Shown piece after piece: positions 48,773-58,783 of a stretch of 64,000 bases of DNA. Every line of letters begins with the position of its first letter. Within the stretch, counting starts at the first letter, position 1. A program made the position numbers and the translations under genes. The notes beneath the pieces were generated by a model. It worked only from the letters and a program-made list of their open reading frames with translations. It was not told the DNA's origin and did not search any database. This DNA comes from an uncultured Acidobacteriota bacterium. Its GTDB lineage: Bacteria > Acidobacteriota > Vicinamibacteria > Vicinamibacterales > UBA2999. The stretch lies in NCBI GenBank assembly GCA_963724485.1, contig CAVRUW010000008.1, positions 78,931 through 142,930 of the forward strand. The letters are read 5' to 3'.

Positions 48773-49768
48773 TTACCATGCGCCGAGCCGATTGATGACA
48801 GCGATGGCGGCGACGCTGACCACGAGACCAGTCATGGTGGCGAGCGCCATCGCTCGAGTCACGTCGCTTGCCGTTTCAAGAATCGGATCGCGTGGATCGC
48901 CAATCCAGAGATCCGTCACCTGCCGTCCCCCGAGCCAGATTGGGCCAACGATTCGGCGCTGCACCGCGCCAGCGATCGCCGCCTCGCTCCACCCTGAATT
49001 CGGGCCAAGCAACAGCGCATGCTGACGAAGGCCCACTAGCCACGCCTTTCGGCCGGAACAGGTCGGGAGCAGCGTGGCGAGGCCGGCAATCACCAGCCAT
49101 GTCAGTCTCGCTGGAACGAAATTCATCACGTCGTCGAGCCTGGCACCGCACCATCCGAATCGCAGGTAGCGCGGCGTTTTGTAACCCACCATCGAGTCCA
49201 TCGTGCTCACGACCTTGAAGAGCACGAGACCTGGAATCCCCGCGAGCACATACCAGAACACCGGGCTCACGAATCCATCGGTGAGGTTCTCGCCGAGACT
49301 CTCCACCGCGGCACGCCGGCAGGCGCCGGCATCCATGCGATCGGTATCACGACCGACGAGCGCGCTCACGGCTACACGCGCGCGTGGCAGGTCGCCCGCA
49401 CGGACGGCGCGCTCGATCTTCCACACGTGGTGAAGCAAGTCACCGAGCGCAAGGAGGCTGTAAAGCACAAATACGTGAGCCACCCAGCCAAGGGTGGGCG
49501 AGACCGCGGCCGCAACGGCGATCGATCCGGTAATCGCGGCGACTGACGCGGCCGACAAACCGACGAACAACAGCACACCGCCGGCGTATCCATCCAAGCC
49601 GGCCGCGCGCAGCTTGTCCTCCATCCACGTCAGCACGCGTCCGACAAGCCGAACGGGATGCCATGCGTAGCTCGGGTCGCCGATCGCGAGATCGACGAGG
49701 GCCGCAACGCCGAGCAGGTACGGGTCAGGGCCGATCGCCGCAGCGAAGCCGCTTAGAGATGTCGCCAC
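48773..49768 (-). CDS. cbiB: Adenosylcobinamide-phosphate synthase CbiB/CobD
   Basis: LVDLAIGDPSYAWHPVRLVG...ALVGRDTDRMD...ESLGENLTDGFVSPVFWY...KVVSTMDSMVGYK...GW.ARLDDV.NFVPARL. The GTG start at 49768 is inferred. Confidence 0.85.
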   Translation of the reverse strand: MATSLSGFAAAIGPDPYLLGVAALVDLAIGDPSYAWHPVRLVGRVLTWMEDKLRAAGLDGYAGGVLLFVGLSAASVAAITGSIAVAAAVSPTLGWVAHVFVLYSLLALGDLLHHVWKIERAVRAGDLPRARVAVSALVGRDTDRMDAGACRRAAVESLGENLTDGFVSPVFWYVLAGIPGLVLFKVVSTMDSMVGYKTPRYLRFGWCGARLDDVMNFVPARLTWLVIAGLATLLPTCSGRKAWLVGLRQHALLLGPNSGWSEAAIAGAVQRRIVGPIWLGGRQVTDLWIGDPRDPILETASDVTRAMALATMTGLVVSVAAIAVINRLGAW

Positions 49769-50874
49769 TTCTCGGTCCAGCCGAGCGCCAATGCGCGCAG
49801 GACCAGGTCCTTCACGTCGCCACTCGCATGCGGCCGCAACCGCCCACGGAACTCGCTCCACCGCTGGATCTGCGCCGCCAGGTTCGCCGCGAGCAGCGCC
49901 GCGTGCTGCGCCATCGCATCCGGAGCCGCCGATTGGGGTACCGTTCCGAATCGCACGCGATCGCAAACCGCGGCCAGCGCGTGCGCCGCCGTCCCGACCA
50001 GTGGCTCGAAGAGGGCGGCCTTGGTGTTCTTCTGCAACAACTCGAGATCGGCATCGCCGAGAAACGGCGCGATGTCCTCGAAGAACGTCGCCTCTTTGAC
50101 GCCGTAGCGGCCCAGGGCGTGGAAGACGCCGCGCGTGTAACTGGCTTCGAGGCCGTTCTGCCATCGCAGCGCTTCCAGCGTCGCCTGTCGCGTCACGAGC
50201 CCCACGAGCTCACCAAGCTTCATGTGCGGGCTCGCGGAGGTCAGCGGCGGGCCATCGATCAACGGCACGGCAATGCAGTACTGATCGGTCCCCGTGCCGG
50301 TCGCGAGATCGACATGACGTTTGCTGGGCACGGCCAGCCGCTGCAAAGCGGCGCTCTTGCCTTCGGTCATCGTTACCACCACGCGGGCTAACGCGGCCGG
50401 CGTCAGGGGGCGGTTGATGAACAACATGGTGTTGATGGTGCCGGCGTAGGCAGGCACCTTCTCGATGCCGGCTTCGGTCTCGCGCCAGGATGCGGGTTCG
50501 CCCGCCGCGGTCGCGTTCCCTTCGACGCCGGCGGTCACGGCGGCCATGACCGCCAGGCCTTCGTCCGTTTCCTGCGCGATTGCCACGTAGTTCATGTTGG
50601 CGGCCGTGCCCATCACCGCTGTCGTCGCCGCGGGCAGCATCGCCTCGGCGCAGGCGCGGTCGTGATACGCATCGAGACCGGCTTCGACCATGAGCCGGTG
50701 TCGCTCGAGATGCGCGGTGCCCTCGCAGCTCTGATGATTGAGCAGATGCTGAAGGTAATCGACCTGCCCGCCATGCCGGACTGACGTGGTCAGCACGCGA
50801 TGCGGACCGCGCAAGTCGGCAGTCAGAAAGCGTCCGGCTCGGCGAAGACCGACCAGGTTGTTGTCGACGAGCAT
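49753..50874 (-). CDS. cbiZ: Adenosylcobinamide amidohydrolase CbiZ-like, with a ~130-aa C-terminal extension
   Basis: ...MAAVTAGVEGNATAAGEP...AGTINTMLFINRPLTPAALARVVVTMTEGKSAALQRL...LATGTGTDQYCIAV. The start is uncertain (ATG 50874 or TTG 50913). Confidence 0.75.
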   Translation of the reverse strand: MLVDNNLVGLRRAGRFLTADLRGPHRVLTTSVRHGGQVDYLQHLLNHQSCEGTAHLERHRLMVEAGLDAYHDRACAEAMLPAATTAVMGTAANMNYVAIAQETDEGLAVMAAVTAGVEGNATAAGEPASWRETEAGIEKVPAYAGTINTMLFINRPLTPAALARVVVTMTEGKSAALQRLAVPSKRHVDLATGTGTDQYCIAVPLIDGPPLTSASPHMKLGELVGLVTRQATLEALRWQNGLEASYTRGVFHALGRYGVKEATFFEDIAPFLGDADLELLQKNTKAALFEPLVGTAAHALAAVCDRVRFGTVPQSAAPDAMAQHAALLAANLAAQIQRWSEFRGRLRPHASGDVKDLVLRALALGWTEKWRHL

Positions 50875-50905
50875 TTCCCACGCGAGTCGCGCATTCTCAT
50901 TGAGG

Positions 50906-52321
50906 TCAGACAAGATCGAGCTCTCCAAAGCGTCGTTGATGTTGGTCGAACCACTTGCCCAGCCTGCGATAGTGATCCGCCTTGGCTCCCGCGTCCGGTG
51001 GCATGACGCCAAACACCGCCGCGCACACCTCAGGATTTTCGAAAGCTCCGTGCAAATAGGTACCAATCACGCGATTTGCCCAGATGCCATCCTCGCTGCC
51101 GTCCCTCAGCCTGGCAAACGGTGTGGTGCGCGCGGATGGGTCGAGCGTCGTCACGCCCAAGTGAATCTCGTAAGCGCCAAAGTCCTGGCCGGTGACGAGT
51201 TTCGCAGCAACGGCCTTCGTCATCTTTTTGGACGTGAGTACAGTCGCGGCGGGAATCAGCTGAAGGCCGTCGACGTGCGGGGCTGAGCCCTCGACGCCGG
51301 TCGGATCCTCGATGCAATCCCCGAGCATTTGATAGCCGCCGCAGATCCCGATGATCGTCGCACCGGCTCTATGGCGCGCCGTGACCCAATCCGCCAGTCC
51401 CTGGGCGCGAAGCCATTCAACGTCGGCGATCGTGTTCTTGCTGCCGGGCAGGATGATGAAATCGAATCGGTCCGATGTGGGCGCGCTGACCCAGTCGGCC
51501 CACGTCAGCAGCCGGAAATCTGTCGCATTCGACAGATGGGGCAGTCGAACGATTGCGATTCGCGCCCCCGCTGGCGGCGTCGTTCGTCGGCGTGTCTCCA
51601 ACGCCAAACTGTCTTCGGCATCGAGATGGATATCGTCGGCGTACGGAAACACGCCAAAGCATCGCGACGCGGTCAGCGCTTCCAGCGCCGGGACACCATC
51701 GTCGAACAGCGAAACGTCCCCGCGGAACTTGTTGATCATGAAGCCGCGAAACAGCGCGCGTTCCTCAGCCCTGAGCAGGTGTGTTGTGCCCACGATCGAC
51801 GCGAAGACACCGCCCCGCTCGATGTCGGCGACCAACAGCCAGGGCGCGTGCAGGGAGGTGGCCAGCCACAAGTTCACCACGTCATGCTGGCGCAGGTTCA
51901 GCTCGGAAACACTGCCGGCGCCCTCGATGACCACGACGTCGAACCGGCTTGCCAGATCGTGATAGGCCTCCAGCACCTTTGCCCGCAATACGTCCGTGCA
52001 CCGGTAGTATTCGCGAGCGCTGAGCGTGTTCCACACCTGTCCGTGGACCACGACCTGGCTGACACCATGACCGCTCGGCTTCAGCAGGATTGGATTCATC
52101 GCGGGCTCGGGTTCGAGCCCACAGGCTTCGGCCTGCGCCACCTGCGCGCGGCCGATCTCGCCTCCGGCGGCGCACGGATACGAGTTGTTCGACATGTTCT
52201 GCGCCTTGAAAGGAGCGACCGAGACCCCCCGATTGCGGAGCCAGGCGCAGATGGCCGTGACCATCCAGCTCTTGCCGGCGTTGGAACATGTACCGCCAAT
52301 GAAGATCGGGCGGGCACTCAT
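50906..52321 (-). CDS. cobQ: Cobyric acid synthase CobQ/CbiP
   Basis: MSARPIFIGGTCSNAGKSWMVTAICAWL...APFKAQNMSNNS...NPILLKP...VVIEGAGS...GICGGYQMLG...YLHG. ATGA overlap with the upstream gene. Confidence 0.9.
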   Translation of the reverse strand: MSARPIFIGGTCSNAGKSWMVTAICAWLRNRGVSVAPFKAQNMSNNSYPCAAGGEIGRAQVAQAEACGLEPEPAMNPILLKPSGHGVSQVVVHGQVWNTLSAREYYRCTDVLRAKVLEAYHDLASRFDVVVIEGAGSVSELNLRQHDVVNLWLATSLHAPWLLVADIERGGVFASIVGTTHLLRAEERALFRGFMINKFRGDVSLFDDGVPALEALTASRCFGVFPYADDIHLDAEDSLALETRRRTTPPAGARIAIVRLPHLSNATDFRLLTWADWVSAPTSDRFDFIILPGSKNTIADVEWLRAQGLADWVTARHRAGATIIGICGGYQMLGDCIEDPTGVEGSAPHVDGLQLIPAATVLTSKKMTKAVAAKLVTGQDFGAYEIHLGVTTLDPSARTTPFARLRDGSEDGIWANRVIGTYLHGAFENPEVCAAVFGVMPPDAGAKADHYRRLGKWFDQHQRRFGELDLV

Positions 52322-53178
52322 TCGTGCCCTCGTGACCCAACGACGCCATCGATCTGCCGCCGCATCCAAGCGAGGTTGCGTGCGAGCCGGTCTTCCTGAG
52401 ACACCAGCGGGCAACTTGCGCACAGCTCGCCCGCGGGTAACAAATAGAATCGGCAGCAACTGGCGCGACGCTGATAGACGTGGGTCGCGTCGCGGTAACT
52501 CACCGTATGCACCTGCGGTCTCATCAGCGCGACCAGGTCGTCGCCCGCAAAAAATTGCTGCAGCTCGGGCAACACGCCGCTCTGATCGGACCCCGCTGCC
52601 GACAGGGTGATGAGATGTGCGGCCCACGACGAGGTCAACATCCCCCAGGTCCCGCGCGGGGCGAAGCCGGACCAGACGTGGAGCGCTTCCACGACAGGAG
52701 CCGCCTGCGCGATCAACTCACGCCGCAGGCTTTGCAACAACGCGCCTCGATCGGGCACGCACCGGACGCCTGGATATTCCGCCCCGTGGTCGCCGTCGAT
52801 CAGAACGCCGCGTGGCTCATGAATTGCGGTGCGCTCGAAGAATGTCGATGCCTTGAACTTCAAGGACACGTTCTCCAACGAGATATCAGGCACGCAGCCG
52901 TATTTCACGTACGGTGCGATGGCCATTGCAGAAGCCCAGCCAAATCTCAACGCATACAGGGCGGCGATTGTCCGGCGATCGGTCGTCTCGAGCCGCGCGC
53001 CGATGCGCAACAGCAACGCGTTGAGTGGTCCCGACGTTGCGTTGGACAGCTCGCTGCCGACGATCCATCCATCGCCCCATTCCGGCCGGCCGAGCTCCAC
53101 GTTCCAGCTCGCGTTGAGGCGCTTCAAGCCTTCGAAGGCACGGGCGATCGGTGACGTGTGTTGGCCGGCCAGGCTCAT
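52318..53178 (-). CDS. FhuF-family (siderophore-iron-reductase-like) 2Fe-2S protein
   Basis: The C-terminus ...RRASCCRFYLLPAGELCASCPL gives C-C-x10-C-x2-C, the FhuF cluster motif. Both ends have ATGA overlaps (permease stop, cobQ start). Confidence 0.75.
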   Translation of the reverse strand: MSLAGQHTSPIARAFEGLKRLNASWNVELGRPEWGDGWIVGSELSNATSGPLNALLLRIGARLETTDRRTIAALYALRFGWASAMAIAPYVKYGCVPDISLENVSLKFKASTFFERTAIHEPRGVLIDGDHGAEYPGVRCVPDRGALLQSLRRELIAQAAPVVEALHVWSGFAPRGTWGMLTSSWAAHLITLSAAGSDQSGVLPELQQFFAGDDLVALMRPQVHTVSYRDATHVYQRRASCCRFYLLPAGELCASCPLVSQEDRLARNLAWMRRQIDGVVGSRGHE

Positions 53179-54167
53179 CGGGTCGCGCCCTTCCGAACCA
53201 GCCAGATCAAGTGCGGTCCGCCGATGACGGCCGTGATCGCACCCGCTGGGATTTCCGCCGGCGCGAGCATGACACGGCCCAGCGCGTCACAGGATGCCAG
53301 CAACGCGCCGCCCGCGAGGAATGCGCAGGGCATGACGATCCGATCGTCGCCGCCCACGCGCGACCGCAGCAAATGCGGTACGACCAGACCTACGAAACCA
53401 ATCGGGCCGGTCAGCGCGACCGTCGTCGCGGCGAGCACCGATCCCGCGACGTAGCCGGCAACCAACGACTGCGTCACATGCGCGCCGCGTGTCGCGGCCC
53501 ACGCTTCTCCCACAGCCAGCAAGTTCCAGCGTCGCGCCTGGCGGATGACGAGGACGCTCATCGTCAGCACAATCGCTACATAGATGGTGAGCGTGGAGTA
53601 CTCAATGGCGTCGAGACTGCCGATCAACCACCGCGAGATCGCAAAGGAGTGGGACACGCCGCTGAGGCCGTGGACCAGGAGAATGAGCGCCCCGCAGATG
53701 CTGTTGATCGCGATGCCGGCCAGAAGCAGTCCGGAGACGGAAACCTGCCGATCTCTGCGCGCAGCGCCCATGACGAGGAGCAACACCAGGGCCGCGCCGG
53801 CGAGCGCGCCGATCCACACTCCGGTCACGCCCAACATCGTGTGGAGGTCCGCCGCAATCGCGAGTACGGCACCCAGCGATGCGCCGGTCGATACACCAAG
53901 CGTGTACGGCGTAGCCAGCGCATCGCGCAGCATCGACTGAAACAGGCTCCCAGCGAGCGCCAGCGCCCCACCCGCAAACAGTCCCAGCAGCGTCCGTGAG
54001 AGACGCAACTGCGTGAGGATCGACCAGTCAGGCTCCTGCCGATGCCAGACAGCGGCCAGATCGAGGGGCGACGGACCAATGAACGGCAGGACGATCGCCG
54101 CGGTGACGAACAACGTGGCCGATCCGCCCAGCCAGACCGCGAGTGACCGGTGTGTGACCGGAGTCAT
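53175..54167 (-). CDS. FecCD/BtuC-family ABC importer permease
   Basis: ...TLLGLFAGGALALAGSLFQSMLRDALATPYTLGVSTGASLGAV...GPIGFVGLVVPHLLR...AITAVIGGPHLIWLV. Confidence 0.9.
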   Translation of the reverse strand: MTPVTHRSLAVWLGGSATLFVTAAIVLPFIGPSPLDLAAVWHRQEPDWSILTQLRLSRTLLGLFAGGALALAGSLFQSMLRDALATPYTLGVSTGASLGAVLAIAADLHTMLGVTGVWIGALAGAALVLLLVMGAARRDRQVSVSGLLLAGIAINSICGALILLVHGLSGVSHSFAISRWLIGSLDAIEYSTLTIYVAIVLTMSVLVIRQARRWNLLAVGEAWAATRGAHVTQSLVAGYVAGSVLAATTVALTGPIGFVGLVVPHLLRSRVGGDDRIVMPCAFLAGGALLASCDALGRVMLAPAEIPAGAITAVIGGPHLIWLVRKGATR

Positions 54168-54934
54168 CTGTAGCCGACCCAAGCACCAGCCGCCGGGCTG
54201 TGTTCGACCCGCAGTCGATCCGAAAAGACACGCAACCACGACGGGTCGTCGAGGGCGGCGCCAGCCCGCACGTCGAGCACCACACGGCGATCCGCGAGCA
54301 CGACCAGCCGGCTGCAAAACGTGAGCGCGAGGTTGATGTCATGCGTGACGGCAAGGCACGCCGTACCGCGACTGGCTTCGTCACGGAGCAGTGTGAAGCA
54401 GTGCAGCTGTTGATCGATGTCAAGGAACGTCGTCGGCTCGTCCAGCAGCAACAGCTGCGGTCGCTGCGCGAGGCACGCGGCAAGGTACACGCGCTGGCGC
54501 TCTCCGCCGCTCAAGGTGCCGAGCGTCCGGTCACGATACTGCAAGCAATCGCACCGCTGCATCGCCGCACTCGCGATCTCGCGATCCTCTGCTAACTCGA
54601 ACCATTGTGATGCGTGCGCATAGCGGCCCATGAGGACCAGCGCTTCCGCGCGCATCGCCAGATCGGCACGGAGGCTTTGCGGGAGATGCGCAACGACACG
54701 TGCGCGTTCGTCGGCGCTCCAGGAGCGTAGCGGTCGATTGTGAATGAGGACCTCGCCGGCGCTGGGCCGTCTCAGGCCGCCGATGATATCCAGCAAGGTG
54801 CTCTTGCCGGCGCCGTTCCGGCCCATGATGGCGACGAATTCACCCGCCGCGACATCGAGCCCGACGCCGCGCAGGATTTCGGTTGAACCCGCTTGCCAGC
54901 TCACGCTACGGACCCGGAGGAGACCCTCGCTCAT
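54164..54934 (-). CDS. ABC importer ATP-binding protein (BtuD/FhuC/FecE type)
   Basis: GRNGAGKSTLL Walker A, LSGGERQRV signature, LLLLDEPT Walker B. ATGA overlaps at both ends. Confidence 0.9.
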   Translation of the reverse strand: MSEGLLRVRSVSWQAGSTEILRGVGLDVAAGEFVAIMGRNGAGKSTLLDIIGGLRRPSAGEVLIHNRPLRSWSADERARVVAHLPQSLRADLAMRAEALVLMGRYAHASQWFELAEDREIASAAMQRCDCLQYRDRTLGTLSGGERQRVYLAACLAQRPQLLLLDEPTTFLDIDQQLHCFTLLRDEASRGTACLAVTHDINLALTFCSRLVVLADRRVVLDVRAGAALDDPSWLRVFSDRLRVEHSPAAGAWVGYR

Positions 54935-55833
54935 GGAAAGCGCACCCCGTGAAGCCACGTCGCCATCAGCTCCGCGATGTCGACCATCCGCGGGCCGGGC
55001 ACGACGAATGCGTCGTCGGTGGTCACGTGCACCGCGCCGTCACGCACCGCCTTGACGAGAGTCTGACCCTGCCAGAGACGTGCGGTGATCGCCCGCCGGC
55101 GATCCGAGTCGGCCGGCGACTCTCCCATCTCACCGACGTCGATGAGGACATCGGGCGCGACGCTGATGATCGTCTCCATCGAGATACGGGGATATTGAGT
55201 TGTCGTGTCGAGCGCATTCACGCCGCCGGCGAAGGCCGCAAGGTCGCTCAAGTACGAGCCGCGGCCGACCGCCACGATATCGGTGAGTGTGCCGGTCCGA
55301 CGCCCGACGATGATCAGGATCTTGCGAGTCGGGCGTCCCGCCACGGCCGCCTTCACGCGATCGAGCCTGGTGTTGATCTCGGTTACAAGCCGCTCGGCGC
55401 GGTCGGACACACCGGCTGCGGCCCCAATGCCGCGGATTGTGGTGAAGACGGCGGCCAACGAACCGGGTTCGACCGTCGCGGTTTTGATCCCGACCGATGC
55501 GAGCTGCGAGCCAATCGAATTTAGTCCAGTGTGGACGAAGACGAGGTCGGGTTTGAGTCGCGCGATGATCTCGGCGTCGGGCTTCAGGAACGTGCCGACC
55601 CTCGGCAGCTTCTCGACAGCAGCCGGAAAACGGCAGAAATTCGAGACGCCCACGACACTATCGCCGAGACCGAGGGCGAAGAGCGTCTCGGTGATGTTCG
55701 GCGAGGTGGACACAATTCTCGCCGGGGCAGACGACTGCCCTTGGAGGCCCGCGCCGCAAGCCACCAGCGCGAGTGCGACGAGGAGCTGCAGCCGGCGCGC
55801 CCACCTTCGCGCGCCGGCCGATGACGTCACCAT
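54931..55833 (-). CDS. Periplasmic binding protein, Peripla_BP_2 (BtuF/FhuD-like)
   Basis: RIVSTSPNITETLFALGLGDSVVGVSNFCRFP...LPRVGTFLKPDAEIIARLKPDLVFV... Confidence 0.85.
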   Translation of the reverse strand: MVTSSAGARRWARRLQLLVALALVACGAGLQGQSSAPARIVSTSPNITETLFALGLGDSVVGVSNFCRFPAAVEKLPRVGTFLKPDAEIIARLKPDLVFVHTGLNSIGSQLASVGIKTATVEPGSLAAVFTTIRGIGAAAGVSDRAERLVTEINTRLDRVKAAVAGRPTRKILIIVGRRTGTLTDIVAVGRGSYLSDLAAFAGGVNALDTTTQYPRISMETIISVAPDVLIDVGEMGESPADSDRRRAITARLWQGQTLVKAVRDGAVHVTTDDAFVVPGPRMVDIAELMATWLHGVRFP

Positions 55834-56408
55834 GCGCGCGAGAAGCGGTTCCCTTGTTTCCCTGTCACGCCGCGCAGTGAGCCGCTGACACCTGCATCGT
55901 GCTCGAGTTTGCGCCCCAGCAGCCACAAGAGATCCGACAAGCGGTTCACGTACGCCAGAATGCCTGGCTGGACGACCGTACCGGCTTCCTGCAGGCGGAC
56001 GAGCGCGCGCTCCGCGCGGCGACAGACGGTGCGTGCGACGTCGTAGGCCGCCGCAGCGCTATGCTCGCCAGCGATCGACCAGTCGCCAAGAACGCCCTCA
56101 ATCGCTTCGATGCGGTGGACTTCCGCCGTTAGACGATCGACGAGGCCCGGTTCGATGATCACCTGTGGTTTCGGGCTCTCGGGCGGCGTTGCCAGCGACG
56201 ATCCGATCTTGAACAAGTCCTGCTGGATGGTCTTCGTCAGCGCGGCGATATCCGCATCGTCACAAATGGATCGCGCAAAGCCCATCGTAGAATTCAGCTC
56301 GTCGATGGTGCCGTAAGTCTCAACCCGGATCGACGCCTTCGATACGCGCACACCGCCCGCGAGGCTGGTTTCGCCCTCATCACCTCGCATGGTGCTGATG
56401 CTTCTCAT
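55827..56408 (-). CDS. ATP:cob(I)alamin adenosyltransferase, PduO type
   Basis: STMRGDEGETSLAGG...VETYGTIDELNS...IQQDLFKIGS...RTVCRRAER...YVNRLSDLLWLL. Confidence 0.9.
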   Translation of the reverse strand: MRSISTMRGDEGETSLAGGVRVSKASIRVETYGTIDELNSTMGFARSICDDADIAALTKTIQQDLFKIGSSLATPPESPKPQVIIEPGLVDRLTAEVHRIEAIEGVLGDWSIAGEHSAAAAYDVARTVCRRAERALVRLQEAGTVVQPGILAYVNRLSDLLWLLGRKLEHDAGVSGSLRGVTGKQGNRFSRAW

Positions 56409-56479: not shown

Positions 56480-58783
56480 CTAGAAGCCGAGGCGATACGA
56501 CAGCTTGAACGACGCGCCTTGGAGCGGGAAGCCCAGCTTTTCGTAATAGAACGTGTCGAAGACGTTGTTGATCGCGAGCGTGACGGCGTGCGGACGCGCC
56601 AGCCGGAAGGTGAGCGCGGCGTCGACCACCGTGAAGTCGTCGTAGTCGATGATCGGAAAGCCTGGCGCATTGAAGTTGTTGTCCTTGCGCCCTTGGACAT
56701 ACCGCCCCGAGACCCGGCTGCTGATCCGGCCGTAGTCGAAGTCGACACCCGCGCGCACGGTGTTGCTCGGGACGTTCAGAATGTCCTGCTCGGAGCCGTT
56801 CGCCAGCCGTTCTTTGCGGTTGAAGTAATGGGTGCTGTTGGCGAACACACCGACGTGACCACCAATGCGATGCTCCGCCTCGAGGTCGAGGCCGCTGATG
56901 TGCGCGTCCAAGCCGTTCGCGACGGAGACGATGATTGGCGCCGGCGGCGGCGGGTTGCTGATGACGACGTTGGAGATGAACCGGTCCTTGACCACCGTCC
57001 GAAACATGGTCACGTCAAACCGCGTGGTCCGAGAGCTCCAGTCGGTACCGACGTCGAAGGAGACGCTGCGTTCGGGCTCGAGGTCCGGGTTTCCCTGCGA
57101 GATTTGCGTGCGCCCGCTGACAACCGTGGTGGTGAACCCCGTCAGCATGATGGCCTCGGCGGGAACGAACGCTCGTCCAATGGCAAAGTGCGCCCGCAGA
57201 CCGCGCGTCAATTCCTGTTTGATGCCAAAGCTGGGATTGAAAATCGTAAACGTCGATTGCGACGGAGTGAAGTTTGTCTTGAACGGCGTCTCGAGCGTTT
57301 CTGTCGTGATGTGGTCCAGACGTCCGCCAGCCGCCACCACGGTTCGACCCTCTCGCAGCTTCAACGTGTTCTCGAGATAGATACCCGCAGTACGTTTGTT
57401 GTGGTCGGCTGAGAACGGTGCGGCGCGATCGCCGGTGCGCGTGTACGACCGGCTCAGGCTACTGACCTTCTCGTAGTCCAGGCCGATGACGAGGCCGTTC
57501 TGCCGCGACCACTGCCACGAATCCTTGATCTGTGCTCCGACCCATTCGAGATCGCTCTCGAACGACAAGTAGGGCAGAAACGGCCCATCGAGGGGATTCG
57601 TCGATGTCACGTTCGTCGTGTGACTGACATCACGCGCACGGTAACCCAGGAGCGACACCGCATGCGCGCCGACCTGACCGGCCAGGCCCACGTCCTGGGT
57701 CGATCGCTCGATGTCCTTGCTGCCTTGCGAGTTCACACCGTTGAAGAGATCCCCCGGCGTCATGATGTCCCGCCCGCGGTAGCCGTTGGCGCGGCCATCG
57801 ATCCGCCACGCGGCCGATAGGTCTACGCCGAGGCGGACGGTGCCGTCGTACGTTTCATAGCTGGTTGCGGGCCGAATGTCTCCATTGCCCATGCGGAGAT
57901 TGCCGCGCTGATCGAATGCGCTTCCGCTCAAATCGAAATCGACACGCCTGGAGACATTGCCGCCGATGCGGCCGGCGAAGTCAGACGTGCTGAAGCTGCC
58001 GCCGCCAGCGCGCAGATTGCCGTTGATCTTCCCGCGTGAACGTCGGGTGATGACGTTGACGACACCACCCATCGCGGAGGAACCGTAGACGGAGGACGCC
58101 GCGCCCTTCAGCACTTCGATTCGCTCGACATCCTCGAGAAGCAAGGTCGCGAGATTGGTCACGCCAGAGGGACGGCCGTCGATGAGCAGCAGCGATCGCT
58201 TGTTGATCCCCCCGGTCTGCGGCCGGAAGCCGCGGATCCCGATGCCCGAGAGCACGCCGCTGTACTGCACGACGTCAACGCCTGCATTCTTCTTCAAGAC
58301 GTCGGTGAGATCGGACGCTACCGTGCGCTCGATGTCTGTCGCATCGATCACCTCAATTTTTTGGGGTGTTTCGGCCAGCCGCGTCTCGGCGCGCCGGGCG
58401 GTGACGACAACGGTTTCCGCCAAGCCGGCCGGTTTCAGAATCACGCGGAGTGGTGTGTCCGATGGCGCTGTCACTTCGACGGAGAACGGCGCAAAGAGAT
58501 TCATCTCGACCAGGACGATGTACGTCCCTGGCGCCAGATTGCGAAACGAAAACGTCCCACCTGCATCGGTGGTGGTGGTTTGAGCGCCAGCGCCACGAAG
58601 GTCGGTGGCGATTACGCGTGCGCCTGGGATGACCGACCCCGCGTCGTCGACAACGATGCCGGTGAGCGCGGGCGTGGACGGCTGCGCGACTGCGTTGCCG
58701 CTCATGACGGCTATGCAGACGGGGAGTGTGAGAAGAAGAATCGAAAGCGATCGGAACGATCGTCGGGTGATGCGACCAGCCAT
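56480..58783 (-). CDS. TonB-dependent receptor with a CarboxypepD_reg-like N-domain. It is BtuB-like by context, as the first gene behind a cobalamin riboswitch.
   Basis: Signal peptide, LTGIVVDDAGSVIPGARV...GTYIVLV, a plug (IEVIDATDIERT...IRGF...LIDGRP), a 22-strand-size barrel, and a terminal ...KLSYRLGF. Confidence 0.9.
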   Translation of the reverse strand: MAGRITRRSFRSLSILLLTLPVCIAVMSGNAVAQPSTPALTGIVVDDAGSVIPGARVIATDLRGAGAQTTTTDAGGTFSFRNLAPGTYIVLVEMNLFAPFSVEVTAPSDTPLRVILKPAGLAETVVVTARRAETRLAETPQKIEVIDATDIERTVASDLTDVLKKNAGVDVVQYSGVLSGIGIRGFRPQTGGINKRSLLLIDGRPSGVTNLATLLLEDVERIEVLKGAASSVYGSSAMGGVVNVITRRSRGKINGNLRAGGGSFSTSDFAGRIGGNVSRRVDFDLSGSAFDQRGNLRMGNGDIRPATSYETYDGTVRLGVDLSAAWRIDGRANGYRGRDIMTPGDLFNGVNSQGSKDIERSTQDVGLAGQVGAHAVSLLGYRARDVSHTTNVTSTNPLDGPFLPYLSFESDLEWVGAQIKDSWQWSRQNGLVIGLDYEKVSSLSRSYTRTGDRAAPFSADHNKRTAGIYLENTLKLREGRTVVAAGGRLDHITTETLETPFKTNFTPSQSTFTIFNPSFGIKQELTRGLRAHFAIGRAFVPAEAIMLTGFTTTVVSGRTQISQGNPDLEPERSVSFDVGTDWSSRTTRFDVTMFRTVVKDRFISNVVISNPPPPAPIIVSVANGLDAHISGLDLEAEHRIGGHVGVFANSTHYFNRKERLANGSEQDILNVPSNTVRAGVDFDYGRISSRVSGRYVQGRKDNNFNAPGFPIIDYDDFTVVDAALTFRLARPHAVTLAINNVFDTFYYEKLGFPLQGASFKLSYRLGF

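Follow-up and report, generated by a model that had tools for sequence, protein, structure and literature searches.

The window analysed here is a stretch of 64,000 nucleotides from an uncultured Acidobacteriota bacterium (contig CAVRUW010000008.1), and the gene under study, at positions 52318–53178 on the minus strand, encodes a FhuF-like [2Fe-2S] protein of 286 amino acids. It lies in a nine-gene operon behind a cobalamin riboswitch, in the order TonB receptor–PduO–BtuF–BtuD–BtuC–FhuF-like–CobQ–CbiZ–CbiB, and it belongs to a FhuF-like subfamily that is recruited into the cobalamin regulon. The features of the locus, all on the minus strand and including an ATP-binding cassette (ABC) importer, are as follows.

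52318..53178, minus strand: FhuF-like [2Fe-2S] protein gene, 286 amino acids, ATG start, putative cluster ligands C241/C242/C253/C256
58896..59102, minus strand: RF00174 cobalamin riboswitch aptamer heading the operon, full-length match (102 bits, E 2.3e-24)
56480..58783, minus strand: TonB-dependent receptor with an N-terminal CarboxypepD_reg domain, presumably BtuB-like in role
55827..56408, minus strand: PduO-type corrinoid adenosyltransferase (PF01923, E 9e-48; TIGR00636, 145 bits against a cut-off of 108)
54931..55833, minus strand: BtuF-like periplasmic binding protein (Peripla_BP_2), likely start at the ATG at 55833
54164..54934, minus strand: ABC ATPase (BtuD-like), whose ATG at 54934 shares ATGA with the btuF stop
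53175..54167, minus strand: FecCD-family permease (BtuC-like), whose ATG at 54167 shares ATGA with the btuD stop
50906..52321, minus strand: cobyric acid synthase CobQ (NF001989, 527 bits against a cut-off of 273), with a start codon that overlaps the end of the FhuF-like gene
49753..50874, minus strand: CbiZ adenosylcobinamide amidohydrolase, with a C-terminal extension of ~140 amino acids that has no Pfam match
48773..49768, minus strand: CbiB adenosylcobinamide-phosphate synthase, likely start at the GTG at 49768

The ATG of the FhuF-like gene (53178–53176) overlaps the TGA of the permease gene, which ends at 53175, as ATGA, and its own TGA (52320–52318) overlaps the cobQ ATG (52321) in the same manner; an ATGA overlap is found at each junction from btuF through cobQ. 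An earlier sequence-only reading had placed the gene between two such overlaps inside a riboswitch-controlled corrinoid operon, and both parts of this description are confirmed from the DNA and the RF00174 match. The gene is thus counted in the cobalamin regulon, having RF00174 upstream on the same strand and lying within a tightly packed unit. The composition profile of the operon bears no signature of foreign DNA. In addition, contigs from one rhizosphere metatranscriptome study match parts of the gene (X20, 52649–53086, with two differences; X15, 52294–52467); by the rule of the tool none of them bridges a gene junction, DNA carry-over is possible, and stretches without coverage carry no information. 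The window CbiZ, the extension of which falls within 49753–50340, has the same length on related contigs (377–386 amino acids).

The residues C241, C242, C253 and C256 form a CC-x10-C-x2-C motif at the C-terminus of the FhuF-like protein, and all four cysteines are invariant in a 30-sequence alignment in which identity falls to 22%. The protein matches the Pfam family FhuF_C (PF11575) at 33.1 bits, the cut-off being 20.5. An AlphaFold2 model built on 30 relatives had a predicted local distance difference test (pLDDT) score of 92.8 and a predicted template modelling (pTM) score of 0.90, and its top match in the PDB was Escherichia coli FhuF (7QP5; Foldseek E 1.4e-5, TM 0.58/0.67, 15% identity). 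The next Foldseek matches were the palm domains of siderophore synthetases independent of nonribosomal peptide synthetases (NRPS), known as NIS synthetases, to which FhuF itself is related (bioRxiv 10.1101/2023.07.04.547673). Furthermore, the family profile retrieves 7QP5 by sequence (E 0.003), and in a profile–profile comparison residues 84–261 align to residues 98–261 of FhuF (E 4e-6). Judged from the model and the profiles, the motif is not a chance match and the protein has the FhuF fold; the cluster motif proposed in the sequence-only reading is borne out by the PF11575 score and by 7QP5 as the best structural match. PF06276, the N-terminal domain of FhuF, has no match in the window protein and matches eight of the 30 aligned relatives. 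The family is small: it comprises 493 representative clusters among 1.8 billion at E 1e-3, a word-indexed search returned 414 matches and a search of the ESM Atlas gave generic FhuF clusters only. Relatives are annotated in public databases as 'ferric iron reductase FhuF', as '(2Fe-2S)-binding protein' or as hypothetical. A search for longer fused forms found none, which the tool itself rates as weak evidence. One relative, P0122 (452 amino acids, 50% identical), is a FhuF-like protein fused to a C-terminal NUDIX domain.

The neighbourhoods of relatives were taken from metagenome contigs and from 26 loci of species-representative genomes of Acidobacteriota (Vicinamibacterales, Luteitalea), Gemmatimonadota, Binatota and Myxococcota; the operon proteins of the window were mapped onto the loci by tblastn and the loci were scanned with Rfam. 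A full-length relative at 40% identity or higher is present in 29 distinct loci, on which the counts are based; 24 of them are linked to B12, and this supports the earlier claim that the gene is not a passenger. In 15 of the 29 the gene adjoins cobQ, the usual order of this type being PduO–BtuFDC–(unnamed open reading frame–CobN–ChlID)–FhuF-like–CobQ–CbiZ–CbiB. The tree described below includes 11 loci with the order CobN–ChlID–FhuF-like–CobQ; PduO–FhuF-like–CobQ is found in L023 and on the P0010 contig, and the gene order of L007 and L018 is identical to that of the window. In L004 the FhuF-like gene ends such an operon without cobQ. Five further copies (L012, L017, L019, L020 and L026) are single genes or the first of a short operon, each with its own RF00174 directly upstream (98–108 bits in L017, L019, L020 and L026; 34.9 bits in L012), and those of L024, L025 and L027 lie within other riboswitch-led or riboswitch-flanked units. 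The linkage is therefore not unique to this genome, as relatives in four phyla stand in corrinoid operons or behind riboswitches, and on this point the outcome is in favour of the sequence-only reading.

The conserved partner of the FhuF-like gene is cobQ. The same reading had also placed the protein at the transporter, which is not supported, since btuC adjacency is confined to the window, L007 and L018. These three arrangements, with the ATGA coupling to btuC in the window, would fit a hand-off or release factor that docks on BtuCD and, whether or not redox chemistry is involved, takes over or frees the corrinoid in the cytoplasm, and the N-terminal domain of FhuF is of the ligand-binding 'palm' type and has relatives among siderophore synthetases. 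However, most loci have chlID, pduO or a riboswitch, and not btuC, next to the gene on its upstream side, and closely related btuFDC operons exist without the gene; we regard a hand-off factor as unlikely.

In a quick maximum-likelihood tree with E. coli FhuF as the root, the B12-linked and unlinked copies form one 38-row clade, with a value of 86 in the Shimodaira–Hasegawa approximate likelihood ratio test (SH-aLRT), within a strongly supported 68-row clade. The 68-row clade does not include L073, a relative of 28% identity whose gene is part of a siderophore-type ABC importer locus, with the gene for the binding protein on one side of it, two FecCD permease genes on the other, and Fur and DtxR genes close by. 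This relative, the FhuF fold and motif, and the fact that FecCD and Peripla_BP_2 importers also carry siderophores are what could be said for an ordinary ferric-siderophore reductase, with the ABC system importing a siderophore under B12 control. The sequence-only reading had offered this as its alternative. However, the window protein reaches only 25 bits against the cut-off of 63.85 of the FhuF equivalog model TIGR03951 (and 21.4 bits against 137.9 for TIGR03950), the rest of the operon is purely corrinoid (PduO, CobQ, CbiZ, CbiB), the siderophore-linked L073 stands outside the B12 clade, and no siderophore, Fur or NIS/NRPS genes were found near any relative of at least 40% identity. The alternative is not supported by these neighbourhoods, and it is the least probable of those considered, to the point of being hardly credible.

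The B12 economy of the carrier genomes bears on which step the protein might serve. The window genome (G000) is 100% complete by markers and contains a single FhuF_C protein, several proteins with B12-binding domains, including a MetH-sized open reading frame, and two cobalamin riboswitches, the second of which (L039, G000:C1:738509-738747, 53 bits) heads another CarboxypepD_reg-type TonB-dependent receptor. CbiC, CobN and CbiX were not found in the window genome, and since B12-binding-domain proteins are present it is, from its gene content, a B12 user that must import corrinoids. Neither CobS (PF02654) nor CobU (PF02283) was found in the window genome despite CobQ–CbiZ–CbiB (48773–52321), and CobS was found neither in 25 relatives nor in G427 and G429, which carry the same operon; carriers from the Gemmatimonadales, Binataceae and Polyangiales do have CobS. 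Carriers without CbiC, and thus non-producers, are G000, G427, G428 and G429, the last with the same chelatase-free operon. The gene is also carried by de novo producers (G430 and G431, in which CbiC and CobS are present), and its occurrence in producers and non-producers fits a step common to synthesis and salvage.

Two rival explanations are affected by these contents. The protein might remove upper ligands reductively from cyano-, methyl- or other Co(III) corrinoids in the manner of CblC, yielding Co(II) corrinoid for all downstream uses and not serving the adenosyltransferase directly. Its gene is co-expressed with the importer behind the riboswitch; in addition, it is by homology a low-potential one-electron donor, and it occurs as a stand-alone riboswitch-controlled gene in genomes limited to import and salvage, such as G428. 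However, its conserved neighbour is cobQ and not the transporter, de novo producers carry it beside biosynthetic genes (L025) where there is no upper ligand to remove, and no similarity to MMACHC/CblC is seen, Pfam finding FhuF_C only. Upper-ligand removal is accordingly considered improbable. A role in cobalt supply, in which a cobaltochelatase would receive Co(II) from the protein, through reduction of a Co(III) chelate or by another route, is suggested by the position of the gene directly after CobN–ChlID in the 11 tree loci and beside CbiX in L024, L025 and L075. Against this, the complete window genome has no CobN, CbiX or CbiC, so that free cobalt has no corrin to enter, and G429, without CbiC, has an operon likewise free of chelatase; cobalt supply is quite improbable.

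The gene is sparsely distributed. It is found in none of the 40 nearest relatives, in ten of 401 sampled genomes of the window's order, in two of 201 sampled Polyangiales genomes and in 351 Gemmatimonadota genomes as three clear matches and a weak one. Within the order sample, cobQ is present in eight of ten carriers compared with 35 of 391 non-carriers, counts that are descriptive and carry no statistical test, the genomes being related; the association with cobQ, for which the sequence-only reading had proposed a co-occurrence check, is thus strong. Conversely, only eight of the 43 cobQ-carrying genomes in this sample have the FhuF-like gene. Among 20 cobQ loci taken from genomes without the gene, 11 encode a CobQ at least 60% identical to that of the window, and in these 11 btuC, chlID or pduO usually runs straight into cobQ, no gene between being found by tblastn with the window operon proteins. 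The FhuF-like gene, rare and patchy in occurrence, is an optional accessory, because most cobQ operons lack it and sister operons show no replacement. Transfer from another phylum, considered in view of its absence from the 40 relatives and from ∼400 genomes in the phylum, was dropped when ten carriers among 401 genomes were found in the same order.

The FhuF fold is known for a single chemistry, in which an exposed cluster of low potential gives one electron to a chelated metal, and the chelated metal common to all of the contexts above is corrinoid cobalt. In both known pathways, cobalt reduction and adenosylation precede CobQ. We favour a role in the one-electron reduction of corrinoid cobalt to supply the PduO adenosyltransferase, because of this fold chemistry, the retention of the cluster ligands, the slot beside PduO and CobQ, the occurrence in producers and salvagers alike, and the dispensability of the gene; on this analysis we give it about an even chance. 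The cytoplasmic FhuF-fold [2Fe-2S] protein would be made when B12 is scarce, along with the corrinoid importer and the salvage enzymes, and its exposed low-potential cluster would pass single electrons to corrinoid cobalt, whether the corrinoid is imported or newly metallated. It might thereby bring Co(III) to Co(II) and, on the PduO-type adenosyltransferase, Co(II) to Co(I); PduO would then adenosylate the corrinoid, and CobQ, CbiZ and CbiB would act on the adenosylated substrates. The substrate, the direction of electron flow and the partner are what we infer from fold, pathway position and conservation of the cluster ligands. The midpoint potentials of E. coli FhuF (−370/−310 mV) are low enough in principle for the four-coordinate Co(II) bound to an adenosyltransferase. 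Generic flavodoxins and flavins can also perform the reduction, as with Salmonella enterica CobA and FldA and with PduO enzymes, and an optional gene fits such a reaction. A complex predicted for the PduO trimer and the FhuF-like protein scored 0.26 against a mark of 0.32, a value that speaks neither for nor against their contact. The stronger proposal, that the protein is a dedicated, riboswitch-regulated [2Fe-2S] corrinoid-cobalt reductase on the FhuF scaffold and the missing Co(I)-making partner of PduO in soil bacteria, serving both synthesis and salvage, is put forward tentatively, with somewhat better than a one-in-three prospect of being right.

Several observations weigh against a corrinoid-cobalt reductase. 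We know of no corrinoid-binding motif for the FhuF fold, and, to our knowledge, Co(III) corrinoids can be reduced without a dedicated enzyme in those systems that have been studied. The support of the B12-linked clade is only moderate (SH-aLRT 86, in a quick tree). Five loci (L016, L022, L068, L069 and L070) have no riboswitch or B12 gene in the stretch examined, and a permissive Rfam search of L022, L068, L069 and L070 found no weak riboswitch; the neighbours of the five are unrelated and are not siderophore genes. Adjacency to a chelatase (CobN–ChlID, CbiX) would also fit cobalt supply. Finally, in the Polyangiales locus L027 the gene follows nrdA–nrdB behind a riboswitch, the position of YfaE in E. 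coli, and this context hints at an iron-directed role there.

The latter order (riboswitch, nrdA, nrdB, FhuF-like), together with the Fe(III) reduction that is the known activity of the family, would agree with a general low-potential ferredoxin or iron reductase serving enzymes induced at B12 scarcity, for example in a YfaE-like upkeep of the di-iron centre of class I ribonucleotide reductase. However, it is seen in a single locus; only two of the 201 Polyangiales genomes are carriers, the other copy (L026) has a riboswitch of its own, and the neighbours elsewhere are corrinoid genes. We consider such a role very unlikely. Within L027 (L027:4905-9578), a second aptamer heads a gene for a YNCE-like β-propeller.

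Other features of the loci were noted in passing. In L002 (L002:2972-9004) a CobN and a ChlID-type (AAA+/VWA) chelatase lie within the importer/salvage operon, with an open reading frame of ∼310 amino acids before CobN that has no Pfam match and is fused to CobN in L004; the CobN–ChlID stretch also occurs in L003, L004, L006, L008–L011, L013–L015 and L021. Such operons are present in genomes without CbiC, for example G427, which suggests metallation of an imported metal-free corrinoid or another use of the chelatase. In the Binataceae locus L025 (L025:10733-15173), the FhuF-like gene is directly followed by a riboswitch, which leads a gene for a fusion of CbiX with a thioredoxin-like [2Fe-2S] ferredoxin; an FAD_binding_6 oxidoreductase, PduO and CbiD come next. 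Two distant FhuF-like genes are directly preceded by DUF7676 (PF24724; L075:3-434 and L076:291-887). B12 neighbours thus persist in more distant branches of the family: in L075 (37% identity) the pair stands beside a histidine-rich CbiX and a riboswitch-led receptor. DUF7676 also heads one B12 operon (L004:1-240), where PduO usually sits, and it may be another unrecognized B12-linked family; it was not found in the window genome, and control genomes gave no match either. At L031/L062 (G755:C18:135592-138762), BtuC is followed by a short piece of the unnamed open reading frame and the last ∼60 residues of the FhuF-like gene, a remnant that looks like an internal deletion of CobN, ChlID and most of the FhuF-like gene. 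The contig of L015 (CAZUGF010000022.1), deposited as part of a Bifidobacteriaceae metagenome-assembled genome, carries an operon typical of Vicinamibacterales, and its FhuF-like protein groups with a Luteitalea copy; the contig is probably mis-binned.

How cobalt is reduced before adenosylation is among the most uncertain points in B12 metabolism: CobR has been described in a few bacteria, and generic flavodoxins or free flavins are invoked elsewhere. A B12-regulated protein in the reduction slot, on a scaffold known only for the reduction of metal chelates, is a concrete and easily expressed candidate. No papers tying FhuF-like proteins to cobalamin were found in the open-access literature and preprints. 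If corrinoid-cobalt reduction is correct, the chemistry of the FhuF family would widen from iron siderophores to cobalt corrinoids, and annotations such as '(2Fe-2S)-binding protein' or 'ferric iron reductase FhuF' in B12 loci would read differently. Since few genomes carry the family and it is dispensable, the finding concerns a specialized accessory and not a universal step.

Among known systems, the closest structural relative is E. coli FhuF (7QP5; PF06276 and PF11575; TIGR03951), with which the window protein shares the palm-like domain, the loop with all four cluster cysteines in the CC-x10-C-x2-C motif, the conserved W178 and, presumably by homology, a low-potential solvent-exposed [2Fe-2S] cluster. 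The midpoint potential of FhuF is −370 mV at pH 7.4, or −310 mV in earlier work (PMC8068687). The two proteins differ in that identity is ∼15%, the first ∼83 residues of the window protein are not aligned by the profile, and the window protein has a conserved C-terminal helix (residues ∼261–282), whereas E. coli FhuF ends after its last cysteine. R264, R267, N268 and W271 in this helix are invariant among close relatives. Furthermore, A76, Q158, F172, G179 and R237 are >90% conserved in the B12-linked clade and <30% elsewhere, and W169 and W185 are likewise conserved in the clade and mostly different elsewhere. The protein belongs to the FhuF superfamily but is not FhuF proper, because it scores below the TIGR03951 cut-off and has an unaligned N-terminal region, an additional C-terminal helix and clade-specific residues. 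In regulation, E. coli FhuF is under the control of iron, whereas the window gene is under a cobalamin riboswitch with corrinoid neighbours.

YfaE, the [2Fe-2S] ferredoxin of the E. coli nrdAB–yfaE operon, resembles the FhuF-like protein of L027 as a small 2Fe-2S protein encoded after nrdA–nrdB. However, YfaE is a plant-type ferredoxin with a fold and motif unlike those of FhuF, and the nrdAB linkage of the FhuF-like gene occurs in one locus only. The proposed job, the supply of single electrons to corrinoid cobalt before adenosylation, is that of CobR (the cob(II)yrinic acid a,c-diamide reductase of Brucella melitensis), PduS and FldA with CobA. These are flavoproteins, PduS also having 4Fe-4S clusters, and are not homologous to the window protein, in which Pfam finds FhuF_C only and no flavin-reductase domain of the CobR type; any likeness is functional only, and the FhuF-like protein would resemble CobR, PduS and flavodoxin-with-CobA in function on a different scaffold. 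In gene order, the FhuF-like gene shares the CobR-type slot between the chelatase and CobQ.

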